Source of the DNA: Candidatus Sericytochromatia bacterium
GTDB taxonomy: Bacteria; Cyanobacteriota; Sericytochromatia; S15B-MN24; VGJW01
Length of the DNA: 64,000 nucleotides
Assembly (NCBI GenBank): GCA_035285865.1
Contig: JAYKHS010000003.1
Coordinates: 96,001 to 160,000, forward strand
Direction of reading: 5' to 3'
Shown in pieces: positions 10,670 to 51,923 of this stretch. The stretch's first letter is position 1. Each line of letters begins with the position of its first letter. Made by a program: the position numbers and the translations under genes. Under the pieces are notes generated by a model that worked only from the letters and a program-made list of their open reading frames with translations, was not told the DNA's origin and searched no databases.

Positions 10670-12418
10670 TTAGGAATCAGCCCGGTGTACCGGCAGCAGA
10701 TGCAGGGCATCCGCCGTCCCCACCGCCACGAGGCGCGCCTCGTCCACGAACGTGATGGTCCCCGTGACCGCCTCGAGGCGATGAAAAGCCAGCAGACTCC
10801 CGTGCTGCAGGTCGTGGACGCGCACCTCCCCCGAGTCCCAGACGGTCGCAAGCCAGTCCCCGGCACGACCGAACGCCGCGTCGATCGGTAAGCCGCGCCC
10901 ACGCAGACGCCACAGGGGCTCCCCGCCTGATGGTCCATATCCGCGGACCTCCCCGATCTGACCGAGGACCCAGGTCCCGGAGACCGGTTCCACGGCGAGC
11001 CCCAGCCAGTCCGCATCGAAGTCCCCCGACACCGGCGTTCGATCCTGTTCGGGCCGCAACACGCGCAAACAGCCGGGCCCCAGCAGCCACGCCGCCGCGC
11101 CATCCGGGAGCAGACGCCAGGACATCCGCGCAAGTGCCGACACGGGCTGCTGGCGAAACCGCACGGGTAGGCCCTCCTCGTCGAGTGCCATGACCTGCAG
11201 CCAGCCGCTGGCGGCCGCCGCGGCCAGCCAAGGCCGGCCCGGCACGAACTGGACCGCTCGGACAGGGGCCGCCGCAACTTCCCTGCCGTTTCCGACAACC
11301 TTTCCGTCGACCACCCGGACCAGGGCCACCACGCCATCCTCCCGGCCATAAGCCAGTCGGACCGAGCGCGGATCGGCATCGATGGCCGTGATGGGCACTC
11401 CGGCCTCGTCGACGCCCAAGGCCGCCAGAGACCAACCTGCCTCGCGCGAGAGGACCTTGAAGGCACCCTCCCCCGTACCGACGTAGGGCAGATAGGGCTG
11501 CATCCCCCGCTGCAGGGCCGTCACCCCCCCGGATACCGGCAGAGCCCAGGCCTGCGAAGGCCAGGGGCGGGCGGACGGAGGCGCGAGCGCCCACAGCCCG
11601 AGCAAGGTCGGTGCCTCCCAAGCCAGGGCCTCGGCAACCACCTGCGGCTGCTCGCCGACGAATCCGGCCAATGCCCGGGGGCGGGTGGCGGCAAGGATGC
11701 GACAGGCGAGCATCATGTCGCCTGCGGACCGTGCAAGTTCCGCCGGGTCATGCGGTGGGGGGTGAACGCCTGCAGTGCCGGGAAGCCTCACCCGAGCCCG
11801 CTCCCTGAGCGCCCGTGCCCGCTGCTGCAACGGCGTGCGCACGGACCGTTCCGGGACCACGCTGCCTGCGGCATCCGGGTCGGCCACCGCTTCCAGACGG
11901 CGCCCGGCAAGTTCCTCGCCAGCCGGCGCAGCCACGAGGGCCTCGACCAATTCCAGCAGCCGCGGGGGGCAGGCGGTGTCGCGCAACAAAGCCATCGGCG
12001 GCAGCGACCAACCACGGGCCCGATGCCCGAGGATTGCGCACCGCAACAATCTCGGCCACGTGAGCATCCCCAGCAACAAGGGACTGCCCGCAACTTGCAG
12101 GAGGGCAGCGGGCGGCCACATCAACGTCCAGGCAAGGACGCCGGGGACAACAGCCCATACGAGCAGGGCAGAGAGCAACGTGGCCCGCGGCCCCGCCGTC
12201 AGGGCGCCGGTGGCGAAGAGACCGAGGGGGGCCCCCAGCATCCATCCGAGCAACATCCATCCCGGACCGGGCAAGCCTGCCGGCAGAACCATCCAGAGCA
12301 ACAGCAAGGCCACGGGGGAGGATGTCCCCCAGACGGTCAGGGCAGGACGCCACCAGTTTCTCGGCCCCGAGGCCATCCGCGAGACCGCCGCCCGCTCCTG
12401 TTCCCTCCAGGCACGCAT
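10670..12418 (-). CDS. hypothetical membrane protein with C-terminal WD40-like beta-propeller
   Basis: Four N-terminal hydrophobic helices and C-terminal repeats such as LAYGREDGVV and WDSGEVRVHDL. Start trimmed so it does not overlap the divergent radical SAM gene. Confidence 0.55.
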   Translation of the reverse strand: MRAWREQERAAVSRMASGPRNWWRPALTVWGTSSPVALLLLWMVLPAGLPGPGWMLLGWMLGAPLGLFATGALTAGPRATLLSALLVWAVVPGVLAWTLMWPPAALLQVAGSPLLLGMLTWPRLLRCAILGHRARGWSLPPMALLRDTACPPRLLELVEALVAAPAGEELAGRRLEAVADPDAAGSVVPERSVRTPLQQRARALRERARVRLPGTAGVHPPPHDPAELARSAGDMMLACRILAATRPRALAGFVGEQPQVVAEALAWEAPTLLGLWALAPPSARPWPSQAWALPVSGGVTALQRGMQPYLPYVGTGEGAFKVLSREAGWSLAALGVDEAGVPITAIDADPRSVRLAYGREDGVVALVRVVDGKVVGNGREVAAAPVRAVQFVPGRPWLAAAAASGWLQVMALDEEGLPVRFRQQPVSALARMSWRLLPDGAAAWLLGPGCLRVLRPEQDRTPVSGDFDADWLGLAVEPVSGTWVLGQIGEVRGYGPSGGEPLWRLRGRGLPIDAAFGRAGDWLATVWDSGEVRVHDLQHGSLLAFHRLEAVTGTITFVDEARLVAVGTADALHLLPVHRADS

Positions 12419-12454
12419 GGCCGCAGCATGCCATGGTTCGGGTAGGGAGAGGGC

Positions 12455-13507
12455 ATGGAGCAACGCTGCCACGTATGCCCTCGGCGCTGCGATCTGGCTC
12501 GGGCACCCGGATTCTGCGGCGGCTGGGCATGGGGCGCCGAAGGCCCCCGCAACCTCCTCGCCGGACGGGTGGCCAGTTGGTCCGTCGACACCATCGAGAA
12601 GAAGCCTGTCTGGTACTACCGCCCGGGAACGCGCGTCCTGTCTCTGGGCACGTGGGGCTGTACCCTGCGGTGTCGGCACTGCCTGAATGCAGACCTCGCC
12701 TGGGCACGCGGCGGGGCACGTACGGACCTGCCTGAACCGTGGACACCGGAAGCCGTCGTCAGGCTCGCGCGGGAGCAGGACTGCGCGGGTATCGCGTGGA
12801 CGACTACGGAAGCGGCCCCGTGGTGGCCCTTCGTCGTCGAGACCAGCAAGGCCATGCGCGCGGCCGGTGGCTACACCGTGCTCGTGACCAACGGCTTCTA
12901 CACGGCCGAAGCCCTGGCGGAACTGCTGCCGTGGCTGGACGTCTGGCGCGTGGATCTCAAGGCGTGGGACGAGCAGACCTATGGCGTGCTGATGGGCACG
13001 GACCCGGCGCTATCGCCCGCGGCGACTTGCCGGGCGCGCACGCTCGAAGCGCGTCGGGCGGGCGTGCATGTCGAAGTCGTGACTTGCCTGGTACCCGGGC
13101 ACCACGACGGCCCGGAAGCCCTGTTGCCCATTGCCCGCTGGATTCGCGAAGAATTGGGGACTGCGACGCCCTGGCACCTGCTGCGCTTCCATCCCCAGCA
13201 TCTGATGCGGAGTGCCCATGCGTTCGGTGCCGCCGAGGCGGAGGGTCTCGCCCGGACCGTGCGCGCGCAGGGCCTCGCCCACGTCCACACGGGCGGTGAT
13301 GCGACCCGCGGCAAGGGGGCCCTGCCGGCAGGCCTGCGCACCTATGACTGGCACGCGGACGACGGGCGATTCCTGCGCATCGTCCTGGAGGAGGACAGCG
13401 GCAAACTGGGATTCGTCGGCGACGAGGACCTGTTGGAAACGATTCTCGAGGCTTGTCGCGCCGAGGGCCTGGACCTCGGCATCGCCCGTTCGGCGCGGTG
13501 CGGCTGA
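12455..13507 (+). CDS. radical SAM enzyme, AmmeMemoRadiSam/PFL-activase-like
   Basis: CHVCPRRC N-terminus, DTIEKKPVW, CTLRCRHC (CxxxCxxC), VTNGF, VDLKA and PWHLLRFHP; GGAGAGG RBS. Confidence 0.88.
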   Translation: MEQRCHVCPRRCDLARAPGFCGGWAWGAEGPRNLLAGRVASWSVDTIEKKPVWYYRPGTRVLSLGTWGCTLRCRHCLNADLAWARGGARTDLPEPWTPEAVVRLAREQDCAGIAWTTTEAAPWWPFVVETSKAMRAAGGYTVLVTNGFYTAEALAELLPWLDVWRVDLKAWDEQTYGVLMGTDPALSPAATCRARTLEARRAGVHVEVVTCLVPGHHDGPEALLPIARWIREELGTATPWHLLRFHPQHLMRSAHAFGAAEAEGLARTVRAQGLAHVHTGGDATRGKGALPAGLRTYDWHADDGRFLRIVLEEDSGKLGFVGDEDLLETILEACRAEGLDLGIARSARCG

Positions 13508-20035: not shown

Positions 20036-21907
20036 ATGTCCGAGTCCAACGCTCCGCCCCCCGGTGCGACAGCCCCGCTGCCGCCGTGGTTCCAGGCCCT
20101 GAGCGACCACTACAGGGCCAAGGCCGCCCACCAGTTCCTGCTGCACTTCAACATCCAGGACCACGTGTTGGTCGAGGGTCGCATCACGACTGTCCGGGAC
20201 CTGCTGGTGCAACGCCTTGCGGATCGCTTCCTGATCGTCACCTACAGCCTGTCCCGCGGCATCGGCTTTCCCGCGACGGGGCAGGCTCAGGCCGAGAGCC
20301 TCGGGCGTGAGCCCGGCCTTGGGCGTCTGCTGGGCTTTCGCGAGTCAGCCGAGGGCAACGTGCCGGTGGACCCCACGCGAGACGACCGGGACTTCCATCG
20401 GCTCCAGGGGCAAGGACGGATCAGCCCGTTGCAGCCTCCGGACGAGGCTCTGCCAGCCATCGAAAGGGCCTTGCGCCAAGGGGGCAGGCGTCTGTGCGTG
20501 CTGCTGGAGCACGTGGACAAACTGGCGCCTGCAGATGCCCGCGGTCGCGACCAGTGGATCGCCGTGGAAACACTGCAACGCTGGGCCCTCGACGGAGAGC
20601 TTGCCGAGCATGGCCATCTCGTCGTCATGCTGGCCGCGGAGCATGGCCAGGTGGCCGCTGCCGTGCAGGGGGCCAACAGCGGCACGGTGTCCCTGCAAAT
20701 CCCGCTGCCCGATGCGGCAGCACGCCGGATCTATCTCGACCATGTGCTCGCGGATTCCCATTTCGCCCGCCTGGCGTGGCAACCGGACTTCACGCCCGCG
20801 GACCTGGCCGGGCACACCGTGGGTTTCTCCCTGCGCGACATCCTGAACACCTTGAGGTTGGCGGCCGCGACGGGCAGGGCGATCGGCCAGGACCTGGTCG
20901 CCGAGCGCAAGCGGGACATCATCCGTCTGGAGAGCCACGGGCTGCTGCAGATCGTCGAAACACGTCATGGGCTCGACGCCATCGGCGGGCTGGAACACGT
21001 CAAGGCCTATCTGGGCGAAAAGATCGGCAACATCCGGAGCTACCTCGACCTGAACGCCCGGCACGAGCACACGGACGCCTCTCGCGACGCCCTCGCGCGA
21101 GCGCTGGCCTTGGTGCCCCGGGGCATCCTGCTCGCCGGTCCTCCCGGGACGGGCAAGACCATCCTCGCGGAAGCCTTGGCCCACGGCACCCAGCTGAACA
21201 TGGTCAAGCTGCAGGACATCCGCAGCATGTGGGTGGGCGAGAGCGAGCGGAATCTGACGAAGGTTCTGGATCTCCTCGTGGCCCTCGCCCCGGTGCTGGT
21301 GTTCGTCGACGAAATCGACCAGGCCCTTGGCAGCCGTGGAGGGCCTACGGCGGGCGCCGGGGGGGATACCGACAAACGGATCTTCGGCAAGCTGCTGGAG
21401 TTCATGGGAGACAACCGGCACCGCGGCCGTGTACTGTGGGTCGCGGCCACGAACCGGCCCGACTTTCTCGATGCCGCGATGCTCCGACGGTTCGATCGCG
21501 TCGTCCCGATCCTCGCCCCCGACCGGGAGGAACGGACGGCGGTGCTCGCCACCCTTGCCGGCCGTATCGGAACCCGGTACGGCACCGACGTGGACCTGGG
21601 CGCCATCGCGGAACGAACCGCAGGCCTGACGGGTGCCGGCCTAGAGGTCATCGTGCGGCGGGCCGCGGAGCTCGCTACCGACAACGTCATCACCCAGCAC
21701 GGGCTCATCACGGCATTGGCAGACCACAAACCCAACCACGACCCCGCTGTCTACGTGGAGCAGGCCATGCGCGCCCTCGTCGCGGCCAACTTCTTCTCGA
21801 TGCTACCCAGACATCTGCCGCCCGATCTCGCGGAGTTGGTCGAGGCCTGCCGGCAGGAGCGCAGCAACGCCCCGCTCGAACGGGCCTTGGCCCGCCTGAT
21901 GCCTTGA
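20036..21907 (+). CDS. AAA+ ATPase with degenerate N-terminal and active C-terminal AAA modules (Ycf46/SpoVK/Cdc48-like)
   Basis: Walker A GPPGTGKT, pore loop SMWVGESE, Walker B VFVDEID and SRH ATNRPDFLDAAMLRRFDR; the N-half has only a remnant Walker B (LLEHVDKL). Confidence 0.92.
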   Translation: MSESNAPPPGATAPLPPWFQALSDHYRAKAAHQFLLHFNIQDHVLVEGRITTVRDLLVQRLADRFLIVTYSLSRGIGFPATGQAQAESLGREPGLGRLLGFRESAEGNVPVDPTRDDRDFHRLQGQGRISPLQPPDEALPAIERALRQGGRRLCVLLEHVDKLAPADARGRDQWIAVETLQRWALDGELAEHGHLVVMLAAEHGQVAAAVQGANSGTVSLQIPLPDAAARRIYLDHVLADSHFARLAWQPDFTPADLAGHTVGFSLRDILNTLRLAAATGRAIGQDLVAERKRDIIRLESHGLLQIVETRHGLDAIGGLEHVKAYLGEKIGNIRSYLDLNARHEHTDASRDALARALALVPRGILLAGPPGTGKTILAEALAHGTQLNMVKLQDIRSMWVGESERNLTKVLDLLVALAPVLVFVDEIDQALGSRGGPTAGAGGDTDKRIFGKLLEFMGDNRHRGRVLWVAATNRPDFLDAAMLRRFDRVVPILAPDREERTAVLATLAGRIGTRYGTDVDLGAIAERTAGLTGAGLEVIVRRAAELATDNVITQHGLITALADHKPNHDPAVYVEQAMRALVAANFFSMLPRHLPPDLAELVEACRQERSNAPLERALARLMP

Positions 21908-24072
21908 GGATCGTGCAGCTGGCCCTCTGGGTGGGGGCAATCTGCATCGTCGGGTGGTACGTCGCTGCCGAATGTGCCGAATGGCTGGCCCTCTCCTCGG
22001 AACGGGCACGGGCCGCGCTTCAGGGCAGCCTCCTGGGGGCTGCGCTTGGTGGAGGTCTCGTGGTGCTCGAGGTCTTGCTGCTGGACCCGAGCCTCTTCCG
22101 GACACCTGCACGCTGGGGTGGAGAGGCCCTGCGCGGGGCTGTCGTCGGACTGGTCTTCGGGACGGTCGGATTGCTGGCGGCGGCGGCCGCCTATGCGGGG
22201 CTGGGGCATGCCCCATGGGCCAGAGGCCTCTCGTGGGGGGTGCTGGGTCTCGCCACGGGCCTGACCGAAGGCTTCAAGGCGGCTTCGGCACGGCGGGCCA
22301 GGGCAGCCGGGGTCGGTGCCGGTGTCGGCGGCCTGCTGGGCGGTTGGGTGGTCGAACAGGGCCCCGAGTGGGCCGGGCCGTTGTCGGCCAGCCCGGAAGG
22401 CGCCGTCCTGGTGATGACGATGGGCCTTGCCGCATTGGGAGTCTGCCTAGGGGCCGGCATGGGCCTGGCGCAGGTTCTCACCCGCCGGGCCCGGCTGATC
22501 GTCCTGACCTCCCCGCTCGGAAAGCAGCTGGGCCTCGCCTTCGACATCGGCAGTGTCGCGGCCATCGAGACGATAGGCAGCCTGAAGGCCACGTGGACGC
22601 TCACGGGCGACCCCGGCGTGCTGTCCAGGCATCTGTCCCTGGAGCGCCGGGGGGGAAGCCTTCTGGTGCGTCCGCTTGGCCAAGCACAGGTCGACCGTTC
22701 GGATCGCCCCATGCGGCCGGATGAACTCGGTCAGCTGGCGGATGTGGCGTTCCATCGATTGTCCCCTGAAGCGGCCGTCCACCTGCGGGACGGCGAGATC
22801 CTGCGCATCGGCGAGGGAACCCACCTGCACGTCAGTCTGGAACGTCTGCAGCGGACGAACGATGGCCCCCGTTCGCGGATTCCCGCTTTGGTGCTGATGA
22901 TTGCGGCAGCGTGGGCCATCATCCCTGCCGCGACCTCCGAGGCCCGAACGAATGGCAAGCCGGAGCTGGCCATCCGACTCCAGGATGCCCGCATCCTGCC
23001 GGCGCGAGACACCACGGGCCAGTGGCGCGCACGGGCGAACGTCCTCGTCTTGCGCGGGGATGACCCGGTCGAGGGACTCGGTGCCGAAGCCTTCAAGGCC
23101 TCGCTCGACGGCAAGGCCATCCCGATCGCCGCTGCCGGCACGGGGCATGAGTCGCGTCAACCCATCTGCGTGGCTCTCGTCCTTGACCGATCCGGGAGCA
23201 TGCTGGCGAAGGCGCGTCCCCACGGCCCGGCCAGCCGCATGCAAGTGGTGCGGGAAGCAGCCTTGGCTTTCGTCAGACTCCTGGATCCGCGAGACCAGGT
23301 CATGATCGTTTCCTTCGACCGGAACGTGGACGTCCAGGCCCCGACCAGCGATCGGGATCGCCTCGAGCGCGCCATAGCCCAGATCGAACCGGACCGCTGG
23401 GGTGCCGGGACCACGAACCTGCGCGGCGCCGTCGAACGGGCCCTGAACGAGCTGGCCCGGCACCGCGGCCCGGATGCCGGACTCAGGCTGGCCCTCGTCG
23501 CCCTGACGGATGGCGCGCACAACGTGCCCGGCGCACCTTCGCCGGATAGTCTTGTCCGCTCGGCCCGCTCCATCGGCTGCCCGATCCACGCCATCGCCTA
23601 CGGACGCACGGACGCCCCGCGGGGCAGTCGGGACTGGGTCGACGTGCCCGGATTGAAGCAACTCGCCGGGGAGGGGGGCGGCATCTTCCAGATGGCTCCG
23701 GACGTGGCCGCGCTGAATGACGCCTGGGGGCGCATCCTGCGTGCCATCCGCGGCAGCTACGGCCTCGAGCTTGCCCTGGGGCGACGCGTCCCCGACCCCT
23801 ACACCCACGTCCTGGAGGTGCGGCTCGCCGGCACCACCGCTCGCGCAAGCGGCCACGTCAGCGGCGGCATGGTCCCCTCACTTCCGGGAACAGCAGGCAT
23901 GCGCCTCGCCATCTGGCTGCCGATGGCCCTGCTGCTCGCGCTGGGCGGTCTTGCCGTGCCACCGGGGTGGCGTCGCCTGGAACGCCTGCTTGCCCCCACG
24001 GAGCACCCGCCGCCCATCCGGAGCGAGGCCTTGGCCCTCTGGGAAGCCCACAAGAAAAGGGGCGCGTCATGA
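21904..24072 (+). CDS. multi-TM + FHA-like + vWA domain membrane protein
   Basis: TTG start overlaps the ATPase TGA. About 6 Gly-rich TM helices; FHA-like segment (TIGS...GDPGVLSRHL...LRDGEILRIG); one TM; vWA with MIDAS DRSGS, T and LTDG; C-terminal TM. Confidence 0.85.
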   Translation: MRIVQLALWVGAICIVGWYVAAECAEWLALSSERARAALQGSLLGAALGGGLVVLEVLLLDPSLFRTPARWGGEALRGAVVGLVFGTVGLLAAAAAYAGLGHAPWARGLSWGVLGLATGLTEGFKAASARRARAAGVGAGVGGLLGGWVVEQGPEWAGPLSASPEGAVLVMTMGLAALGVCLGAGMGLAQVLTRRARLIVLTSPLGKQLGLAFDIGSVAAIETIGSLKATWTLTGDPGVLSRHLSLERRGGSLLVRPLGQAQVDRSDRPMRPDELGQLADVAFHRLSPEAAVHLRDGEILRIGEGTHLHVSLERLQRTNDGPRSRIPALVLMIAAAWAIIPAATSEARTNGKPELAIRLQDARILPARDTTGQWRARANVLVLRGDDPVEGLGAEAFKASLDGKAIPIAAAGTGHESRQPICVALVLDRSGSMLAKARPHGPASRMQVVREAALAFVRLLDPRDQVMIVSFDRNVDVQAPTSDRDRLERAIAQIEPDRWGAGTTNLRGAVERALNELARHRGPDAGLRLALVALTDGAHNVPGAPSPDSLVRSARSIGCPIHAIAYGRTDAPRGSRDWVDVPGLKQLAGEGGGIFQMAPDVAALNDAWGRILRAIRGSYGLELALGRRVPDPYTHVLEVRLAGTTARASGHVSGGMVPSLPGTAGMRLAIWLPMALLLALGGLAVPPGWRRLERLLAPTEHPPPIRSEALALWEAHKKRGAS

Positions 24073-25226
24073 GTCGCATGGCACGCCTCGAGCAGATCCC
24101 GTGGTGGAACAGCGCGATGTTGGCAGAAGCCACCGTCCTGCTGGCCGGGGTCGGTGCCGTGGGCAACGAGGTGCTCAAGAATCTGGCCCTGATGGGCGTG
24201 GGGCGCGTGGTTCTGGTCGACAGGGACAAGGTCGCGCTGCATAACCTCTCGCGCAGTGTCCTCTTCCGACCGGAACACGTCGGCATGGCCAAGGCGAAGG
24301 CCGCTGCGGAGTCGGCGCTCGGACTGGCCCCCGAGGCCGTCTTCGTGCCCCTCGAGATGGACGTGGCAAAGGTTTCGCCAGCCCTGGCCGCATGGGTGGA
24401 CGTCGCGATCGGGGCCTTGGACAGCCTTGCGGCACAGGTGCGGCTTGGCCGACTGTGTCGGGTTGCCGGCATCCCTTGGGTCCAGGGGGGACTCGGCGAC
24501 GCCACGGACCTTTTCAAGGCCACGCTGGCCACGCATCCGGGCGAGGAGGGGCCTTGCCTCGAATGCCGGCTTCCCGAGGGCCTGGGAGACCGCCTGCTGG
24601 CCGAGGACCTGCCCCGCGGAGGGTGTGCCGAGGCCGGTCGAGAAGCCGAGGCAGCCGGTGGCGTCCCCTCGACGCCGATGACCGCCTCCATTCTGGGCGG
24701 GCTGCTGGCGCTCGAGGCCCTAGCCGTCCTTCACGCGCGCCGTGGTCTTCCCGGTCCGGACAGCCCCCCGGCGTGGGGCACCCACGCCCATTGGAATCTC
24801 CGCGTGCCCTCGGTCCACGCTCTTCGGGGCACGACGGTCCGACCCGAATGCCCGTGGCACGAACCCGTGCGCGTCCACAGGCTGGACCGCCAGATGGCCA
24901 ACCTGCCGATTGCCCACCTCTGGGACGTGCTTGGGCCATCAGGCATGGCCGGCCTCGAGGGTCACCTCGTCCGACACGCGGCCTGCCCAGGATGCAGGGC
25001 CAGCGCCGACTGGCGCTGGTGCCCCGACCTCCCTGCCCCGTGCCCTCACTGCGGTACCCCGGACCCGGCGGCCGAAAGTCTGCGTCATCTGCCGCGTGCA
25101 CACGCCCAATGCGCCCGTACGCCGCGCGCACTGGGAATCCCGCCGGGCATCGGCCTCCGCTGGTTCGATGGGGACGAGGCATGGACCGTGACGTGGCCCG
25201 GCGTCCTCGGGGACCTCAGCCCGTGA
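24069..25226 (+). CDS. E1-like ubiquitin-activating enzyme (ThiF/MoeB/UBA superfamily) with C-terminal Zn ribbon
   Basis: ATGA overlap; GVGAVG, DRDKV-HNLSR, CLEC, putative catalytic Cys in GGCAE (24624-24626), CPWH, then CPGC/CPHC. Confidence 0.9.
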   Translation: MSRMARLEQIPWWNSAMLAEATVLLAGVGAVGNEVLKNLALMGVGRVVLVDRDKVALHNLSRSVLFRPEHVGMAKAKAAAESALGLAPEAVFVPLEMDVAKVSPALAAWVDVAIGALDSLAAQVRLGRLCRVAGIPWVQGGLGDATDLFKATLATHPGEEGPCLECRLPEGLGDRLLAEDLPRGGCAEAGREAEAAGGVPSTPMTASILGGLLALEALAVLHARRGLPGPDSPPAWGTHAHWNLRVPSVHALRGTTVRPECPWHEPVRVHRLDRQMANLPIAHLWDVLGPSGMAGLEGHLVRHAACPGCRASADWRWCPDLPAPCPHCGTPDPAAESLRHLPRAHAQCARTPRALGIPPGIGLRWFDGDEAWTVTWPGVLGDLSP

Positions 25227-25858
25227 GCCCCTTGGCACGGACCATCCTGGCGAGCCTCGTGCCCGTTGCCGCCACGCTGGCTGCCATCCGCAGCCTGCCC
25301 GGCGTCCTCGTGTTGGCGCCGGCCGGCACCATGCTGTCCGTGCTGGCCGCGGCCATCGCCTGGCGGACGAGGCGGCCGAATATCGCTGCCTGGGCCACGG
25401 GCAAGGCCGCCGGGTTCCTCGCTGGCATCGGTCTGCTTGCCTCAGGTGCCGTGGTGCTGGCGACCCGAGGCGATTGGCGGCAGGGTGCCCTCGCAACCCT
25501 GGCCTGGGCGGCAGGCCTCGCCGCGGCGACGTGGCGGGGAGCCGTGGTCCGCGAAACACCCGGAAGACACTTGTTCCGCCTGATCCGGGAAAAGCGCCGC
25601 AGCCCGACTGGTTCGTGTCCGGTGCCGAATTGCCCGGAGCCGCCACTGTCCTGCGACAGGAACGGCTGTGCCCGCGTGCTGTGCGGCACGCACTGGATCA
25701 TGGCCGAGGCCAGATGCGCCGAGTGCGGGCACGACGGCCTTCTGGCCCGACCGAACGCGGGCCGCCGTCACCCCGCTTGGACGGCAGCCCCACTAATTCT
25801 GGCACTGGCCGGAGGCATCGCACTGTTGATGACGTCGTCGCTGCTCCGGGGAACATGA
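25223..25858 (+). CDS. membrane protein with RING-like Cys/His finger (candidate E3 ligase)
   Basis: GTGA overlap; about 4 TM, then C-x4-C-x6-C-x4-C-x4-C-x2-H-W-x6-C-x2-C, then a C-terminal TM. Confidence 0.7.
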   Translation: MSPLARTILASLVPVAATLAAIRSLPGVLVLAPAGTMLSVLAAAIAWRTRRPNIAAWATGKAAGFLAGIGLLASGAVVLATRGDWRQGALATLAWAAGLAAATWRGAVVRETPGRHLFRLIREKRRSPTGSCPVPNCPEPPLSCDRNGCARVLCGTHWIMAEARCAECGHDGLLARPNAGRRHPAWTAAPLILALAGGIALLMTSSLLRGT

Positions 25859-25864
25859 AACGAC

Positions 25865-26137
25865 ATGCCGCAGTACGTGATCGAGATTCTGGACCAGGAC
25901 CTGAAGGACAGGGCCCGTGGTGCCAAGGCCTATGACGTCGCGACGGGCACCACGGTTGCCGCCCTGAAGGCGGCGCTCGTCGACCAGTGGGGCCTGCCCC
26001 GCCGGGACATGCGGGGAGAGGTCCGACCCTACATGATGGCGTGGAACGGCGAGTTGCTGGACGATGGCGACGTGCTCGACGTCCGGATTCCGGACGGGGC
26101 GACGCTCGCGATGGCCAGTCCGGGGACCGTGGCGTGA
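25865..26137 (+). CDS. ubiquitin-like beta-grasp protein (YukD/EsaB-like Ubl)
   Basis: 90 aa; TTVAALKAALVDQWGLP...YMMAWNGELLDDGDVLDVRIPDGATLAM matches the beta-grasp pattern (compare ubiquitin GKQLEDGRTL...ESTLHL); lies between E1 and E2. Confidence 0.85.
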   Translation: MPQYVIEILDQDLKDRARGAKAYDVATGTTVAALKAALVDQWGLPRRDMRGEVRPYMMAWNGELLDDGDVLDVRIPDGATLAMASPGTVA

Positions 26138-26766
26138 CGGCGTGGCTGGCCGAGCACCTGACGCGCCAGTGGGATGGCCTGCAAGCCCTGATCACGCGGC
26201 TCGGGGCGGCATCGCTGATCGAAGCCGAACCGACCGCCTGGCTGGACCCCGTGGGCCGCAAGGCACCCGTGCGCATCGACCTCGCCTTGCGAACGGTCGC
26301 CATCGTGGACATGGAGGTACGCGGTCGGTCTCTGGTCCGGGAGTTCGGCGGGGACGCCGAAGGCTTCGTTCGCGTCACGGATCCGGCCCCACTGGACTGG
26401 GAGCCGGTTTTCGCCGAACCGCTCGAGAACAGCTCCCACGGCCCTATCCGGGTCCGCCTCTTCCTTCCGGATGACCTGAACCGGCCCGCAAGCCCCGAGG
26501 TGTATTTCCTCGACCGGGTCTGGCATCCGAACATCCGATGGGACAACGGACTTGCCTGCTACGGTGACAAGCAGGCCTGGGCCCAGCCGGACCGATCGCT
26601 GGCCGATCTGGTCCGACGCCTGTTCCTGATGACGGCCTTTGCAGACGCCGGTGCGGTGAACATGGACGAGGCGCATGCCCTGAACAAGCAGGCCCTGCGC
26701 TGGTACCGCGACACGCTGGCGGAGATGCCCGAACTCTTCCCGCTGTCCCGCAGGATTCCCGCTTGA
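26134..26766 (+). CDS. E2 ubiquitin-conjugating enzyme (UBC fold)
   Basis: GTGA overlap; LFLPDD..PASPEVYF..VWHPNIRWDNGLAC (HPN plus catalytic Cys at 26557-26559), SLADLV and ALNKQALRWY. Confidence 0.92.
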   Translation: MTAWLAEHLTRQWDGLQALITRLGAASLIEAEPTAWLDPVGRKAPVRIDLALRTVAIVDMEVRGRSLVREFGGDAEGFVRVTDPAPLDWEPVFAEPLENSSHGPIRVRLFLPDDLNRPASPEVYFLDRVWHPNIRWDNGLACYGDKQAWAQPDRSLADLVRRLFLMTAFADAGAVNMDEAHALNKQALRWYRDTLAEMPELFPLSRRIPA

Positions 26767-27413
26767 AGGCAGCACGCTGCTGGCCCGGTCTGCCTGACGG
26801 GGCCCCGCGGGTGCTGGTCGAGGAGGCGTTCCTCGAACGGTTGGCGCGCTTCGGAGAGCGCTCGGCAATGGCCGGCCGGGAGGCCGGAGCCTTTATCCTG
26901 GGCAAGGCCGAAAAGCTTCGTGATGGCTGGCAGATCGCCCTTGAAGAACTGCAGGAGATCGAAGGAGAGGCCGACGCCGAGTCCTTCACCTTTCCTGCCG
27001 AGGCGTTCCTGAAGGCCCACCAGAGATGGCGAACCTGGTCCGTGGACGAGATCGCGGCCCGTCCCGGCACGACGTGCGTCGTCGGCTGGTGCCACACCCA
27101 TCCCGGACACGGCGTGTTCCTGTCGCCGCCGGATCTCGAGGTGCAGCATCGCAAGTTTCCCTTGCCCTTCCAGATTGCTCTGGTGGTCGATCCCCTTGCC
27201 GAATCAGCCGACCGGCGGATGGGCCTGGTGGCGTGGGTGAGAGAGGGCACGCTCTCGCCCCACCTGCCGGACGGCATCGCGTACTTCCCCACCGCCGCTC
27301 CCAGGCAAGCCGATCAGAAACGGCCCTTTGCGGTCGCCGGACAGCACTGGAACTGGGGCATCCTGCCCCTGCTGGCGGCCGCAGGCTGGTGGCTCTGGCA
27401 CCATGGCTTCTGA
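26763..27413 (+). CDS. JAB/MPN+ (JAMM) metallo-isopeptidase with C-terminal membrane anchor
   Basis: TTGA overlap; EAGAFILG and GWCHTHPGHGVFLSPPD (E...HxH-x7-S-x2-D), ALVVDP; hydrophobic tail WGILPLLAAAGWWLW. Confidence 0.92.
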   Translation: MKAARCWPGLPDGAPRVLVEEAFLERLARFGERSAMAGREAGAFILGKAEKLRDGWQIALEELQEIEGEADAESFTFPAEAFLKAHQRWRTWSVDEIAARPGTTCVVGWCHTHPGHGVFLSPPDLEVQHRKFPLPFQIALVVDPLAESADRRMGLVAWVREGTLSPHLPDGIAYFPTAAPRQADQKRPFAVAGQHWNWGILPLLAAAGWWLWHHGF

Positions 27414-27428
27414 CTCGGAGGCAGAAAC

Positions 27429-27734
27429 GTGAACGGCGAGCCAGAAGGGCCCATCATCCGCTCCATACGGGACCTGGCCTCAGGGAAGTGGGTCAAGCCC
27501 CCGAGTCCCGAAGGCCCGGTGCCCGGACCTGCATCGGCAGCGACCGGACGCCCGGACCTCGAGGAACGCTTGCTGCACGCGGAGCGTCTGGTCGCCGATT
27601 ATCAAGAGGCGCTTGTCTCGGCTCATGAACAAGTGCGTGCCCTGCAGGACCAGGTCGCCCTCCTCGAGGATCGGATCCGTACCTTGAATCTCGAACAGGG
27701 CATCCGGCCCGGTGGCGAACGGGAGGCCCTGTGA
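27429..27734 (+). CDS. small coiled-coil hypothetical protein
   Basis: GGAGG RBS and GTG start; heptad pattern LEERLLHAERLVADYQEALVSAHEQVRALQDQVALLEDRIRTL. Confidence 0.75.
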   Translation: MNGEPEGPIIRSIRDLASGKWVKPPSPEGPVPGPASAATGRPDLEERLLHAERLVADYQEALVSAHEQVRALQDQVALLEDRIRTLNLEQGIRPGGEREAL

Positions 27735-28654
27735 GCGCGGAAGGCGATCTCGTCATCAATGCCCTGGTCGTTCCGGTCGGCGTGACAGGGCTTGCCGTCG
27801 GCACGGCCGCCCTCAAGGGCGGGGCATTGCTGGCTGCGACGGCCTGTGATGCAGCAGCGATCGCGGGACACGGTCTTTGGCAGGCTACCGACACAGCCGG
27901 TCGGCTCGGGGCCTGGGCCGTTCGAACGGGGGCCGAATGGGTCCAGAGCATGCAGGATGCGTGGCAAGCCGAGGTGGCGCGCCAGGAGAAGGCCCACGAA
28001 GCTCGATTCGCAGACCGGGATGCCCTTCGCACGCAGGCGATCCGGACCATGGCGCATCTGGCCCAGATCGAGCGTGCCAGGCAAGTTGCTGGATCTACGG
28101 GCGTCGCGGCCGATGCCGAACTGGCGGCGTGGGCCACGGCCGGTCGCCACTGCCTGGGCCTGCTGGAGCAGAACACGACCGCCGCCCTTCCGGCCGTCTC
28201 GCAGTGGCTCGAACAGATGGAGCAGGTTCGTCGTGAAGGCCTGCGCACCCTGGAGAGCATCCAGCAGACCCATGTCGGTGATCTGCTTGTCGAAGCCCTC
28301 GAGGCCTCGGGCTACACCGTCGTGCGAGACGAGCCCTTCGGCACGGACAGACGACTCTCGGCGATGCGCCCAGAGCCGCCTCGGAGGGTGGTCTGGCGCT
28401 TGTCGCCCGGTGGACGGCTCGCCTTCGACGTGACGGATGGCTACGCCGGACAGGACTGCCACGATCTGCTTGCCGACGTACTCGACCACATGCGGCGGCG
28501 CGGCGTGCGCTTCACGCTCGGCCCCGAACTGGATGCGGTCGACCGCATCCTCAGAAGGGTCGGAACGGCCTTCGAGGCCTCGGGGGGGCGATTCCGCACA
28601 GAGCACCTGGGTGTAGGTCCCGATCACGAAGAGCCCGGACGACAGCGGGAGTAA
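27731..28654 (+). CDS. hypothetical protein: hydrophobic N-terminus, coiled coil, DUF1257/DUF2997-like C-terminus
   Basis: GTGA overlap with GGAGG RBS; LLVEALEASGYTV and WRLSPGGRLAFDVTDGYAGQDCHDLL motifs. Confidence 0.7.
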   Translation: MSAEGDLVINALVVPVGVTGLAVGTAALKGGALLAATACDAAAIAGHGLWQATDTAGRLGAWAVRTGAEWVQSMQDAWQAEVARQEKAHEARFADRDALRTQAIRTMAHLAQIERARQVAGSTGVAADAELAAWATAGRHCLGLLEQNTTAALPAVSQWLEQMEQVRREGLRTLESIQQTHVGDLLVEALEASGYTVVRDEPFGTDRRLSAMRPEPPRRVVWRLSPGGRLAFDVTDGYAGQDCHDLLADVLDHMRRRGVRFTLGPELDAVDRILRRVGTAFEASGGRFRTEHLGVGPDHEEPGRQRE

Positions 28655-28751: not shown

Positions 28752-29591
28752 ATGAGCCAGCGCCAAGCGTCAGGTCCGGTCTTCCTCCGGGACAGGGGCG
28801 ACCGGGTGCTGGCCGTGGTCCTGCTGGCCATCGTGGGTCTGTTTGTCCTGCTGGTGATATGGGGCATCCCCCAGGTCGGTCATCAGGTCACGAAGTGGGT
28901 GCCACCGGCGTGGGAACGAAAGCTGGGCGACTCGGCCCTGAAGTCCGTCGTGGTCGGCAAAGCCGAAACCGGTGGGGTCCGGGTCGGGATGGTGGAGGCG
29001 ATCGTCAAACGCCTCACACCCGATGAAGCGACCTGGTCATTCCGTGTCACGCTTGCCCCGGGTGACACCCGAGTCAATGCGATGGCCCTGCCAGGCGGAG
29101 CCATCGTCGTCACCCAGGGACTGCTCGAGCGATGCTCCACTCCGGAGGAATTGGCCGGAGTCCTCGCACACGAGATCGTCCACGTCCAGCGCCGTCACGG
29201 CCTGCAACGGATGGGGCAAGAACTGGGCATCCAGTTGCTGCTGCTCGTGCTGACCGGCGGCGATCCCTCGGACCTTTGGTCTGGTGCCGCAGGTCTCGCC
29301 GGCCTGCACCACAGCCGACAGGCCGAGGACGAGGCCGACAAGGAAGGGCTGGCTCTGATGCTTAAGGCCCGTATCGATCCACAAGGCATGGTGCGGTCGT
29401 TCCGGATGCTCCAGAAGCTTTCGGCGGAGTCTGAAGCCACCGCTTTGCCTGCATTCCTGAGCGATCATCCGGCCGTCGCCGACCGGCTCGCCCGCATCGA
29501 GGCCGAGGCCGCCCGGCATGCCGGTCCGTGGGAACCGATCACCCTGGATCGGCCTTGGCTCAACGTCAGGTTCCCGGCAAGCCGCCGCTGA
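28752..29591 (+). CDS. M48 family zinc metallopeptidase
   Basis: N-terminal TM, VNAMALPGG, VLAHEIVH (HExxH), SRQAEDEAD and FLSDHP; GGAGGAG RBS. Confidence 0.93.
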   Translation: MSQRQASGPVFLRDRGDRVLAVVLLAIVGLFVLLVIWGIPQVGHQVTKWVPPAWERKLGDSALKSVVVGKAETGGVRVGMVEAIVKRLTPDEATWSFRVTLAPGDTRVNAMALPGGAIVVTQGLLERCSTPEELAGVLAHEIVHVQRRHGLQRMGQELGIQLLLLVLTGGDPSDLWSGAAGLAGLHHSRQAEDEADKEGLALMLKARIDPQGMVRSFRMLQKLSAESEATALPAFLSDHPAVADRLARIEAEAARHAGPWEPITLDRPWLNVRFPASRR

Positions 29592-29597
29592 GGACCT

Positions 29598-30686
29598 TCA
29601 GTGCAGGCGAGGACGCCCCCGGGGGGCTTCGCCGCGACTGCGGGACGCGAAGGCCAACTGGCTTTCCCCGAGCAGCACCGCTGCGTGCGCCCCGGTGATC
29701 CGCCCCTCGTTCAGAGCACGAAGGATGGCGCCCTCGAAGGCGCTTGGCGGCGGCCCCTCGCGCAGTGGTTCCCGCTCCATCCATCCGCGGGCATGCATGT
29801 CGGCCGCCAGTTCGGAGGCGTGCTGGGCCTCGAGCAGGCCCAGTTCGCGAAGACGGTCCAACCATCCGCCCATGGACAGACCGTGGGCCGCCTTGAGGAG
29901 CAGCAGCTCGCGGAGGTCCATGCGCGTCACACCGCGTCCGGGCTCGCGCTCGGCCACCAGGCGCGGCACCAGCAGGGCGCGGGCGAAACGGCGAATCCAG
30001 CGCGGCTCCTGGTCTGCCTGGCCGGCCAGATGCCAGCCGAGGACCTCGGCCGCCCCCTCCTGATCGAACGCCGGGTCCGACTCCGTGGGCAGGACGGCAA
30101 CGGGCCAGGCTCCGACGTGTACGGGGCGTCGCCCAAGCGGAGCGACCATCGCAACAGGAGCGTGCACGACGACCCACCCCCGGCGCTCCATCTCGGCACC
30201 CAGATGTCGCCAGGGCTGCAGGCCCTGCCCCCAAAGAACCCTGAGGCGATCGGCCCGCTGTTCGGCTTCCTCGGCTGAGCGAATCGGGCCGAGCAGGCCG
30301 GCATCGAGGTGCGCCGGCTCCTCATGCCATGTCCCGAGTGTCCGAACACCCTCCGCGCGGTCGACGCCATCGAGTATCCGGGTGGTCAACCGCGCCGCCG
30401 TCCGTCCTGCCAGCACCACCCCGACGGGCCAGACCGGAGCCCTCAGCGCTTCGTGCGTAGGGCGGCCCAGGTCTTCGGGTGTCACGCCCATCTCGCGCGC
30501 CAAGGCGAGAAGCGTGCGCCCCGAAGGCTGCGCACGGCCGTGCTCGTACTGCAGGAGCGACGTGTGGCTCAGACCGATGCGGCCAGCCAGCTCACGCAAG
30601 GTCAGCCCCGCCCTGACCCGTACCTTGCGGAGGTGTCGCCCCTGCCGCAGAAGTGTGTCCTCGCCCCAAGCCATGGCCATGCCCAT
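29598..30686 (-). CDS. XRE-family HTH fused to degenerate ImmA/IrrE-like domain
   Basis: LTLRELAGRIGLSHTSLLQYEHG HTH; C-terminal FARALLVP and GRITGAHAAVLLG are typical of XRE-IrrE fusions; HExxH absent; GGAGG RBS. Confidence 0.8.
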   Translation of the reverse strand: MGMAMAWGEDTLLRQGRHLRKVRVRAGLTLRELAGRIGLSHTSLLQYEHGRAQPSGRTLLALAREMGVTPEDLGRPTHEALRAPVWPVGVVLAGRTAARLTTRILDGVDRAEGVRTLGTWHEEPAHLDAGLLGPIRSAEEAEQRADRLRVLWGQGLQPWRHLGAEMERRGWVVVHAPVAMVAPLGRRPVHVGAWPVAVLPTESDPAFDQEGAAEVLGWHLAGQADQEPRWIRRFARALLVPRLVAEREPGRGVTRMDLRELLLLKAAHGLSMGGWLDRLRELGLLEAQHASELAADMHARGWMEREPLREGPPPSAFEGAILRALNEGRITGAHAAVLLGESQLAFASRSRGEAPRGRPRLH

Positions 30687-30789
30687 CTCGCGAACCTCCC
30701 TGAGCGAATCGACCCGAACCCGATGCCATACCAGCATCAAGTTGGCAGCGATCCCAGCAGGACGATCCGTTGAAGGTGTCAGGAACGTG

Positions 30790-50315: not shown

Positions 50316-51923
50316 TTAGGTTGCAAGCGTCTCCGTGGGGGAGGCACGCAAGGCATCACCAGGCTCGAAGACCTGCACGGCAGCCTGCTTGCCCTTGACG
50401 GGCAGAACGCCTCTAGGAATGCACTCCACCCGGCCCTGCACCGCATCGGCCGTCGCCCGGTCCACCAGCGTCGGGGCACCGACTTCCTTCGTCAGGCTCT
50501 CGAGCCGAGCCGCGGTATTCACGACATCACCAATGGCCGTGTACTCCATCCGCTCCAAACTGCCGATGTTGCCGACGACGGCATCGCCGCTGGTAATGCC
50601 GACACCGATGGCAAACTCGGGCAGCCCACGCTCACGCTGCTGGTCGTTGAAAGCGCCTAGCGCCCGATGCATGCGCTGCGCGGCACGGATGGCAGCCAAC
50701 TCGGGCCGCGAAAGTTCGACAGGTGCCCCGAAGAGTGCCATCAGGCCATCTCCGATGAACTTGTTGACCGAACCGCCTTCCTCGGTAACCGCCTGGACCA
50801 TCAGTGCAAAGTACCGATTGAGCGAATCCACCAGCGCCTCGGGGGACAGCCGCTCCGAGATGCTGGTGAAAGAGCGTACGTCCGAAAACAGAACGACGAC
50901 CGGCTGCCGATGCACGCCCAGCGCCGTCGAACCGCGCCTCGCGGAGCGCGCGATTTCTGGCGACGTGTAGCGCGACATGGCATCTTCCAGGCGTCGCCTC
51001 TCGTCGAGGCCTTCGGCCATGTGGTTGTACTGGTAGGCCAACTCCCCCAGCCTGTCGCTGGATTCGATCGGCAGACGAGCGTCGAATCTTCCCGACTGGA
51101 CGAGTTCGATGCCTCCGGCCAGACGCTCGAGCGGACGGCTGAGGTTATAGCGGATGAGTACGGCAAAGACGGCACTCAGGAGGATGGAGACCGCGAGGAG
51201 ATAGACCAACAGCGGCATGGTGCTCTGCGGCGGCCGGCCATCCGACAACTGATGACCGAGCAGTACCATGGCCATCCCGAACCAGTAGGGACCCACAAAA
51301 AGGATGGAAACCATCACACGCCCGCGGACGGAAAGCATCCAGCCCGACTTGTAAGGTGCGGGGTCCTCGCCGTCAAGCAAGGCCGCGATGACCGGACGCA
51401 TCAGGATGTCATAACATAGCAAGGCCACGACGCCCGTCAGTGGACCCACCAGAATCCCGCCATAAGCCAACTCGGGTGGGGGTTGCTCGCCGGCAAGCCG
51501 AACAGCCCACGAGATGACCGGCGGATAGACGAAGGTCCAGGTCAGGACACTGCCGATGGCCGAGCGATACGGAACGGCAAAGGCGACGTGTCGCGCACGC
51601 TCGAGTGCGGACGACTCTGTCACCAGCCCGCGCTCCAGTTGCAGCAGGGCATCGCGCAGGGGTGCCGACCAACGCTTGACTGCGCCAATGATGACGCCGG
51701 ACAGCACGGCAAAAGCCCCGGCCAGAGCCAGCAGTGCAGCAAAAAACACGCGCGCGCGCCAACCGTCCGTCACGGCGACGTAACCGAAGAGCAGAAGGGT
51801 TGGCAGCACGCCGGAAATCAACCTGCCCGCAAGCGGCAAGCGTCGCTCCGCCAGCTCCCAGATGCCCGCGGGCGTTCGATCCACGGCACGCAGCAGGCCG
51901 GTCTGCCCACGAAAGAGATTCAC
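50316..51923 (-). CDS. membrane class III adenylate/guanylate cyclase with HAMP domain
   Basis: About 6 TM, HAMP, FSDVRSFT, KFIGDG, YTAIGDVVNTAARLE and VKGK. The Lys and Thr specificity residues suggest ATP as substrate. Confidence 0.93.
   Translation of the reverse strand: MNLFRGQTGLLRAVDRTPAGIWELAERRLPLAGRLISGVLPTLLLFGYVAVTDGWRARVFFAALLALAGAFAVLSGVIIGAVKRWSAPLRDALLQLERGLVTESSALERARHVAFAVPYRSAIGSVLTWTFVYPPVISWAVRLAGEQPPPELAYGGILVGPLTGVVALLCYDILMRPVIAALLDGEDPAPYKSGWMLSVRGRVMVSILFVGPYWFGMAMVLLGHQLSDGRPPQSTMPLLVYLLAVSILLSAVFAVLIRYNLSRPLERLAGGIELVQSGRFDARLPIESSDRLGELAYQYNHMAEGLDERRRLEDAMSRYTSPEIARSARRGSTALGVHRQPVVVLFSDVRSFTSISERLSPEALVDSLNRYFALMVQAVTEEGGSVNKFIGDGLMALFGAPVELSRPELAAIRAAQRMHRALGAFNDQQRERGLPEFAIGVGITSGDAVVGNIGSLERMEYTAIGDVVNTAARLESLTKEVGAPTLVDRATADAVQGRVECIPRGVLPVKGKQAAVQVFEPGDALRASPTETLAT

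Follow-up and report, generated by a model that had tools for sequence, protein, structure and literature searches.

The subject of this work is a run of nine genes on the plus strand, at 20036-28654 of a 64,000-nt stretch of contig JAYKHS010000003.1 from Candidatus Sericytochromatia bacterium (GCA_035285865.1, positions 96,001-160,000 of the forward strand; this whole stretch is called the window, and coordinates without a prefix are positions in it). In order, the genes encode an AAA+ ATPase, a polytopic membrane protein with FHA-like and vWA domains (the scaffold), an E1-like enzyme, a membrane protein carrying a Cys/His finger (the finger protein), a small ubiquitin-like protein (Ubl), an E2-like enzyme, a JAB/JAMM peptidase, a small coiled-coil protein and a protein of no known family, orf9. 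An initial annotation, made from the sequence alone, had read them as a complete, membrane-associated Ubl/E1/E2/JAB operon, and this reading is borne out. All nine open reading frames (ORFs) lie where it placed them, as do the six 4-nt NTGA overlaps (21904, 24069, 25223, 26134, 26763, 27731) and the two gaps of 6 and 15 nt. The G+C content of the operon, 0.68-0.71, is near that of the rest of the window.

The same gene order is kept in G001, G002 and G003, which belong to the same genus (the contig of G001 stops inside orf9), and also in G013, from a different family. A second, soluble JAB is inserted between the finger and Ubl genes in G013 and G014; in G014 the ATPase gene is flipped and lies at the far end, yet is retained. 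Two other genomes (G023, G026) hold operon fragments on short contigs. The genes thus stay together across three genera despite rearrangement, and the expectation that the ATPase and vWA genes would be conserved with the E1/E2/JAB core is confirmed by these neighborhoods. Pairwise ratios of nonsynonymous to synonymous substitution (dN/dS) within the genus are below 0.55 (0-0.54) for all nine genes and lowest for the Ubl (0-0.11); since dS is often near or above 1, these values are rough, and by them purifying selection is strongest on the Ubl. Because the same genes recur in the same order in other genomes, with these dN/dS values for all nine, the operon is real and not a chance product. Sericytochromatia are a rare group, related to the cyanobacteria but not photosynthetic. 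The operon is present in 8 of their 47 genomes and in 3 of the 15 genera of the order; the E2 profile matches 6 of the 47, and the two fragmented carriers bring the total to 8. The locus is fixed among housekeeping genes, all four genomes of the window's genus having the operon at one syntenic site, and all three of another genus keep at least part of it.

The first gene (20036-21907, +) encodes a classical-clade ATPase in which, judging from Pfam and profile matches and from motifs, a degenerate N-terminal half is followed by one active module. There is a single Walker A at residue 368, with a Walker B at 425, an aromatic pore loop and an RR finger. The only part matching Cdc48/p97, which is the most similar of the solved structures to the active module, is ~354-578; the N-terminal half contains no Walker A, and neither a Cdc48 N-domain nor a second active AAA module is detected. 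The earlier statement that all catalytic motifs are intact therefore holds for the E1, the E2, the JAMM and the C-terminal ATPase module, but not for the N-terminal module, which has no P-loop. Likewise, the "Cdc48-like two-module ATPase" gives way to a protein with one active module whose closest kin is a PspA-linked paralogue. This paralogue, at G000:C28 in the same genome, is 32% identical over 532 columns and follows PspA and a gene for a coiled-coil protein with transmembrane (TM) segments, an order present at 4 of the 6 paralogue loci examined. The G000:C28 operon itself (G000:C28:110482-113769, L142), made up of PspA, the TM-coiled-coil protein and the two-module AAA, is widespread in the class. 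A PspA-linked ATPase with an inactive N-terminal copy has been described, and membrane remodeling proposed for it (Ravi et al. 2024, PMC11237479; this and the other papers given by PMC number were available in part, and what we take from them is limited to those parts). The window ATPase is homologous to it but has no PspA or Snf7 beside it, with Ubl machinery in their place. Neither the coiled-coil protein nor orf9 of the window matches PspA, and one coiled coil of G013 reaches only E=0.14.

The second gene (21904-24072, +) encodes the scaffold. By hydropathy this protein has 5-6 TM segments at the N-terminus and further segments at residues 326-344 (internal, TM- or signal-like) and 668-686, the latter toward the C-terminus. 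The vWA domain (Pfam VWA_2, E=8.5e-15) has an intact DxSxS MIDAS. From the hydropathy, the FHA-like region would lie inside and the vWA outside, probably in the periplasm. FHA domains bind phosphothreonine through a consensus that includes G-R and N-G, and in the alignment the FHA-like region is without these residues, so that the domain looks degenerate. Of the proposed membrane FHA/vWA protein, then, the membrane and vWA parts stand, while the FHA goes undetected by profile in the window protein and appears, at E=0.038, only in the G013 orthologue.

We turn to the enzymes of conjugation. The E1 (24069-25226, +; 385 residues) has a single adenylation domain of the ThiF family at 15-228 (E=1e-34) and a C-terminal domain containing a zinc ribbon. 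It has GVGAVG at 27 and the CxxC motif CLEC at 163, and its nearest solved relatives are UBA7/UBA1 and MoeB. C186, invariant in 6/6 orthologues, is the putative catalytic cysteine from its position, which we take to be that of the catalytic site in MoeB/UBA5-type enzymes. The E2 (26134-26766, +) has the UBC fold, with profile matches to PEX4 (E=4e-8) and UBE2D, and HPN-x8-C142 is invariant in 6/6. The JAB (26763-27413, +; Prok-JAB, E=9e-7) has a complete JAMM, E40 and H111-x-H-x7-S-x2-D, and a C-terminal hydrophobic tail. Three components had been called membrane-bound: the scaffold and the finger protein are, while the tail of the window JAB falls below the hydropathy cut-off, its orthologues having clear hydrophobic segments. 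The JABs of G013 and G014 carry a long domain after the TM segment that is lost in the window's genus.

The finger protein (25223-25858, +) has 3-4 TM segments, the finger, and one more TM segment. The finger follows the pattern C-x4-C-x6-C-x4-C-x4-C-x2-H-W-x6-C-x2-C, with eight ligands invariant in 8/8 sequences. In the predicted model (pLDDT 78.8) its top nine VIA structural neighbors are RING/RBR domains, with Z of 2.6-4.3, and from its position and weakly RING-like fold the protein is a probable E3. Its Atlas leads stay below 0.8, a complex prediction with E2, finger and zinc scores 0.03, and the family is tiny: 1.84 billion proteins yield 5 real representatives. The finger proteins of G013, G014 and P0017 (L019:9271, L020:9334) carry an additional zinc ribbon at the N-terminus, which the window's genus has lost.

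The Ubl (25865-26137, +; 90 residues) had been predicted to be a beta-grasp protein, and its model (pLDDT 88) agrees, the top Foldseek matches being ubiquitin (E=2e-5, TMt 0.78). Its C-terminus is unusual. Characterized beta-grasp modifiers end in Gly; in 4/4 genomes of this genus and in the database proteins P0024 and P0030 the Ubl stops at SPGTVA. V89-A90 is invariant in 10/10 Ubl sequences, and Gly87 is the only Gly close to the end. The tailed orthologues run on as VA-GRELL, VA-AGRSA or VA-AAGRTA; G-R is kept in all of them at +1, +2 or +3 after VA. Across the family the Gly floats over these positions or is absent. The exposable C-terminal Gly expected of a tri-ligase Ubl would accordingly be found in the tailed orthologues and not in this genus. 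Gly87 is conserved within the genus, is Ala at the same position in the tailed orthologues, and lies just 3 residues beyond the last strand of the model (80-84). When the alignment with the 80-residue chain 6fj7_A, which we take to be mature Caldiarchaeum ubiquitin, is extended without gaps, the last residue of the chain falls on position 90, from a weak match (E=1). Read-through of the stop codon was rejected, the frame downstream not being conserved in 4 genomes. The tail-less Ubl is found with one JAB in the 4 genomes of the genus, and a 5-residue tail with two JABs in G013 and G014: the genomes without the tail are also those without the soluble JAB. Because the missing Gly coincides with the loss of the second JAB, the simplest reading suggests that this genus makes a mature, ready-made, Ala-ended modifier. 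Chemistry of E1 and E2 with a C-terminal Ala has a precedent in CBASS Cap2 (PMC10097602).

Two small genes complete the operon. The coiled-coil protein (27429-27734, +) has a SlyX-like match below cut-off (E=1e-6); there are two longer copies in G013 and one in G014. Orf9 (27731-28654, +) has an N-terminal hydrophobic segment, a helical middle and a C-terminal alpha/beta domain with GxxGxxC. It matches nothing in Pfam, NCBIfam or PADLOC, has 4 homologues, all close, and gives an Atlas lead of 0.87 to an unnamed cluster. An assignment as DUF2997 was discarded, there being no match at the place of orf9 in 5 genomes.

The operon has a displaced tenth member that the initial annotation had overlooked. 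This gene (12455-13507, +), 6.5 kb upstream in the window, encodes an AmmeMemoRadiSam-like radical S-adenosylmethionine (SAM) enzyme that matches TIGR04337 (E=7e-46, below cut-off) and has an additional alpha/beta domain at its C-terminus. In G013 and G026 the gene immediately precedes that of the ATPase; in G014 it immediately follows orf9. Among the 47 genomes, only the 8 operon carriers have the close subtype, at 52-73% identity, the copy at the contig end of G023 being partial; the matches in the other 22 matching genomes are 28-40% identical and end by residue 317. Judged by this distribution, the gene travels with the operon. A proposed likeness of its tail to the C-terminal domain of orf9 was not accepted (probability 9%). 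The enzyme ends in CG in 7/7 sequences, the only invariant terminal Gly of the system; one may speculate, by analogy with the CD-NTases, that it could itself serve as an E1 substrate.

Which known system is this operon most like? FtsH-ternary systems have been predicted with an inactive plus active AAA, a vWA, a tri-ligase Ubl system, private helical proteins and a radical SAM of Memo/AMMECR1 type (Kaur, Burroughs, Iyer, Aravind 2020, PMC7159879). By that description, our operon resembles the complex subtype in its inactive plus active classical AAA (one Walker A only), vWA, JAB, E1, candidate RING-type E3, E2, Ubl, helical proteins and radical SAM. It differs in having no linked MoxR: in 4 of the 5 genomes the MoxR genes lie on other contigs or at a distance of ~190 kb, and that of G013, ~10.7 kb from the operon, sits in what appears by eye to be an ordinary MoxR-DUF58-transglutaminase operon. 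There is no EAD1-Ubl-E2 fusion, the Ubl, of 90-95 residues, and the E2 being encoded separately in 6/6 complete copies; the vWA has an intact MIDAS and a TM/FHA fusion, and not a beta-propeller, ClpN repeats or a helical domain; the system is membrane-anchored; and the host lineage is outside those named in the available part of that paper. No EAD1-fused or caspase-like effector is seen among the operon proteins, to which the caspase search was confined, and EAD1 matches were found in 0/5 genomes in a search whose positive control was silent too. Because the tests for MoxR, a beta-propeller-vWA and EAD1-Ubl-E2 failed, the operon, compared with that description, appears to be a relative of the FtsH-ternary systems, working like them, and not a member.

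The other candidates are more distant. Prokaryotic tri-ligase operons were reportedly described by Burroughs, Iyer and Aravind in 2011 as sets of E1, E2, RING, JAB and Ubl. Like these, our operon joins E1, an E2 with catalytic Cys, a finger, a JAB and a beta-grasp Ubl; unlike them, its finger is not of the Pfam Prok-RING family and its Ubl has no terminal Gly. The typical form is at G000:C14 in the same genome (~71800-75100; L027:7816-11069, minus strand), a second, more canonical Ubl locus with a Prok-RING_1-like protein (first Cys pair replaced), E1, a YukD-like Ubl ending LEAG-A, E2 and JAB. Of 13 such loci inspected, 8 have Ubls related to that one, and the RING of G013 carries a HIRAN fusion. 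A metagenome contig (L044:10000-17500) combines an E2-like gene with a JAB, an AAA, a Ubl that ends INAG and, by eye, two Pup-ligase-like genes, a set resembling the coupling of Ubl and Pup mentioned by Kaur et al. (PMC7159879). BilABCD shares the E1/E2/JAB chemistry, but its E1 is built as IAD-AAD-CYS and its order is Ubl-E2-DUB-E1 (PMC10557695), unlike the single-ThiF upstream E1 here; the BilD profile reaches the operon only at E=2e-6 over 60 residues. Bub has an E1 and E2 without Cys, Tyr/Ser oxyesters and DUF6527 (PMC11601596), whereas the cysteines here are invariant and DUF6527 matches none of the nine proteins. CBASS Cap2/Cap3 conjugates an enzyme and not a beta-grasp protein, Cap2 accepting a C-terminal Ala (PMC10097602). 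All three differ in E1 architecture and gene order and, as described in the parts consulted, have no E3, ATPase or membrane parts. By these comparisons the operon is not Bil, Bub or CBASS. The literature search returned no description of this architecture, including in the available parts of Makarova 2024 (PMC11188069), PMC8195603 and PMC11354881; Burroughs 2011/2012 or the source data of Kaur et al. may list a closer one. The novelty first claimed is reduced to the extent that an inactive plus active AAA, a vWA and a tri-ligase Ubl set had already been predicted as FtsH-ternary (PMC7159879). In the literature covered, FtsH-ternary systems and bacterial operons with RING-type E3s are both predictions only.

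Combining these parts, we propose that the inner membrane carries a reversible tag-and-remodel switch, derived from the same stock as the predicted FtsH-ternary and tri-ligase systems; of the readings considered it is the most likely, at about even odds. From the intact motifs, the E1 would adenylate the C-terminus of the Ubl, most likely at Ala90 in this genus, and the Ubl would move by thioester from C186 of the E1 to C142 of the E2. The membrane-anchored finger might then keep the charged E2 on the cytoplasmic side of the membrane, for it to modify lysines of a nearby substrate, the likeliest substrates being the scaffold, the coiled-coil protein and orf9 of the system itself. The periplasmic vWA would act as the input sensor and the degenerate FHA as a phospho-independent docking site. 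As its family suggests, the hexameric ATPase would use its one active ring to thread the tagged protein and, as has been proposed for its PspA-linked relatives, disassemble or release the complex; it would feed no proteasome. The membrane JAB would remove the tag and reset the switch, with the radical-SAM enzyme as a linked output or modifier.

Several observations favor this switch: the cohesion of the genes across three genera, the joint loss of tail and soluble JAB, the exact co-occurrence of a radical SAM (8/47) that matches the Memo-AMMECR1-type enzyme of the FtsH-ternary systems, the agreement of the other parts with the description of those systems, and the homology of the ATPase to the PspA-linked two-module ATPase. 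To these are added the proteasome search, negative in 5/5 genomes, the purifying selection, strongest on the Ubl, the Cap2 precedent for a C-terminal Ala, the fixed locus among housekeeping genes with a G+C close to that of the rest of the window, and the failure to find the E1 on viral contigs. Other points weigh against it. What is seen directly is gene content, conservation, folds and motifs, from which we infer all activities as well as the substrate. The RING-like E3 of the initial annotation survives weakly in its fold neighbors, whose scores are low (Z at most 4.3); no Pfam RING family matches the finger, Foldseek of the model returns a best E=1.4 and nothing at E<=0.001, and hhalign against the Prok-RING_1-like segments of the second locus (a set including two stray non-RING rows) gives a probability of 0.3%. 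As for the Ala end, the correlation of tail and JAB amounts to three related lineages and one loss event. The conserved G-R in the tailed forms may mean that the mature end is Gly there and this genus the oddity, and Gly87 could become exposed through trimming. In Bil, moreover, a terminal Ala after Gly blocks adenylation by the E1 (PMC10557695). Finally, the patchy distribution and an HTH-peptidase-type regulator just downstream also fit a defense system. Taken in its fullest form, with a Ubl made ready to use by loss of its pro-tail and maturing peptidase, conjugated via its C-terminal Ala by a new membrane RING-like E3, its tag read by a PspA-clade AAA motor and a radical SAM as output, the reading is one we regard as rather unlikely to hold in every part.

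An unlikely alternative is an anti-phage or other conflict system whose vWA would detect invaders at the envelope; the Ubl would then be attached to their proteins, as in Bil, or set off an effector such as orf9 or the radical-SAM product. The characterized bacterial E1/E2 pathways in the literature covered are anti-phage or proposed to be so, FtsH-ternary systems are predicted as conflict systems (PMC7159879), and to the patchy distribution is added the regulator, a minus-strand XRE helix-turn-helix (HTH) protein at 29598-30740 that matches the PADLOC RmrA profile, converges on the operon and is kept in G002 and G003. Yet the operon stays at its syntenic site within the genus and at least in part within another, its surroundings are housekeeping genes, PADLOC gives no match at 1e-8 for 36 of the 38 proteins flanking it, no variable effector is recognizable, and dN/dS is low.

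Quality control modeled on endoplasmic-reticulum-associated degradation (ERAD), with damaged membrane proteins tagged, extracted by the ATPase and passed to FtsH, Lon, Clp or the adjacent M48 peptidase, seems to us improbable. Eukaryotic ERAD uses a membrane RING E3, Cdc48/p97 and the proteasome, and the analogy lies in the membrane-anchored finger, Ubl tagging and AAA motor. The finger, JAB and scaffold are all membrane-anchored, the active module is closest to Cdc48/p97 among solved structures, and the M48 gene adjoins the operon in this genus. The ATPase here differs in having one active ring and no N-domain match, and no proteasome or HslV-family gene was found in 5/5 carrier genomes searched, 4 of them at least 90% complete (the control was detected in 10 of 14). 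Extraction followed by degradation in a proteasome, the strict form of the earlier "ERAD-like" proposal, fails for this last reason. Most genera of the order lack the operon, which speaks against a general necessity, and the radical SAM, orf9 and the coiled coil are left unexplained. Similarly improbable is a scheme with no conjugation at Ala90, in which the Ubl is trimmed to Gly87 by its own JAB or that of the second locus, acts non-covalently, or has its C-terminus activated for radical-SAM chemistry. The Gly end of characterized modifiers, the conservation of Gly87 in the genus and the second Ubl of the genome, which ends in the usual way, speak for it; the short distance from Gly87 to the last strand, its replacement by Ala in tailed orthologues, the invariant V89-A90, the weak 6fj7_A alignment to position 90 and the invariant E1 and E2 cysteines speak against it.

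The operon was not found outside Sericytochromatia by pattern- or word-seeded searches, which could miss distant kin. Close homologues with names are all from Ca. Sericytochromatia, and in a 251-genome sample of the phylum the orthologous ATPase is confined to the carrier genomes. Among more distant AAA loci (24-31% identity, mostly Poribacteria; 74 of the 80 kept from 105), 74/74 have no match to E1, E2, Ubl, finger or JAB in up to 10 kb of flank, and 3 have an opposite-strand vWA alongside. In Poribacteria the ATPase homologue stands alone, with two copies in some genomes and no conserved partner in the 6 loci read. Four of 7 metagenome E2 loci are weak and without the operon. Of 212 viral pattern matches, 0 were confirmed. 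Five plasmid records match the AAA, the 2 inspected having no annotated ubiquitin genes, and one plasmid record has a partial E1 match.

Around the operon, the M48 zinc peptidase (28752-29591, +; Pfam M48), a possible accessory only, begins 97 nt downstream. It follows the operon in G002 and G003, while in G013 and G014 none was seen adjoining the operon. A zincin peptidase with a small precursor peptide belongs to the FtsH-ternary description; no precursor was identified here. The ORF at 10670-12679 (-) has membrane-like segments and weakly matches WD40/beta-propeller; it diverges from and overlaps the start of the radical-SAM gene and is conserved in the genus only. At 50316-51923 (-) lies a membrane protein with a nucleotide-cyclase domain that matches the PADLOC PycC profile (E=5e-27), as a single-domain match only.

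The operon is an offshoot of a predicted, experimentally uncharacterized kind of bacterial system, with an unusual Ala end. It is a compact version, with ten genes and no linked MoxR, EAD or caspase seen, and its E1, E2, Ubl and finger are small and soluble, which makes two questions directly testable: whether bacteria carry out E3-dependent Ubl ligation, and whether tags of this kind are read by an AAA motor in bacteria. If the reading in its fullest form were true, the system would be a bacterial counterpart, without a proteasome, of the ubiquitin-p97/ESCRT link at a membrane. The tailed Ubl with two JABs and the tail-less Ubl with one form a natural pair for asking whether a ubiquitin fold can be activated via alanine.

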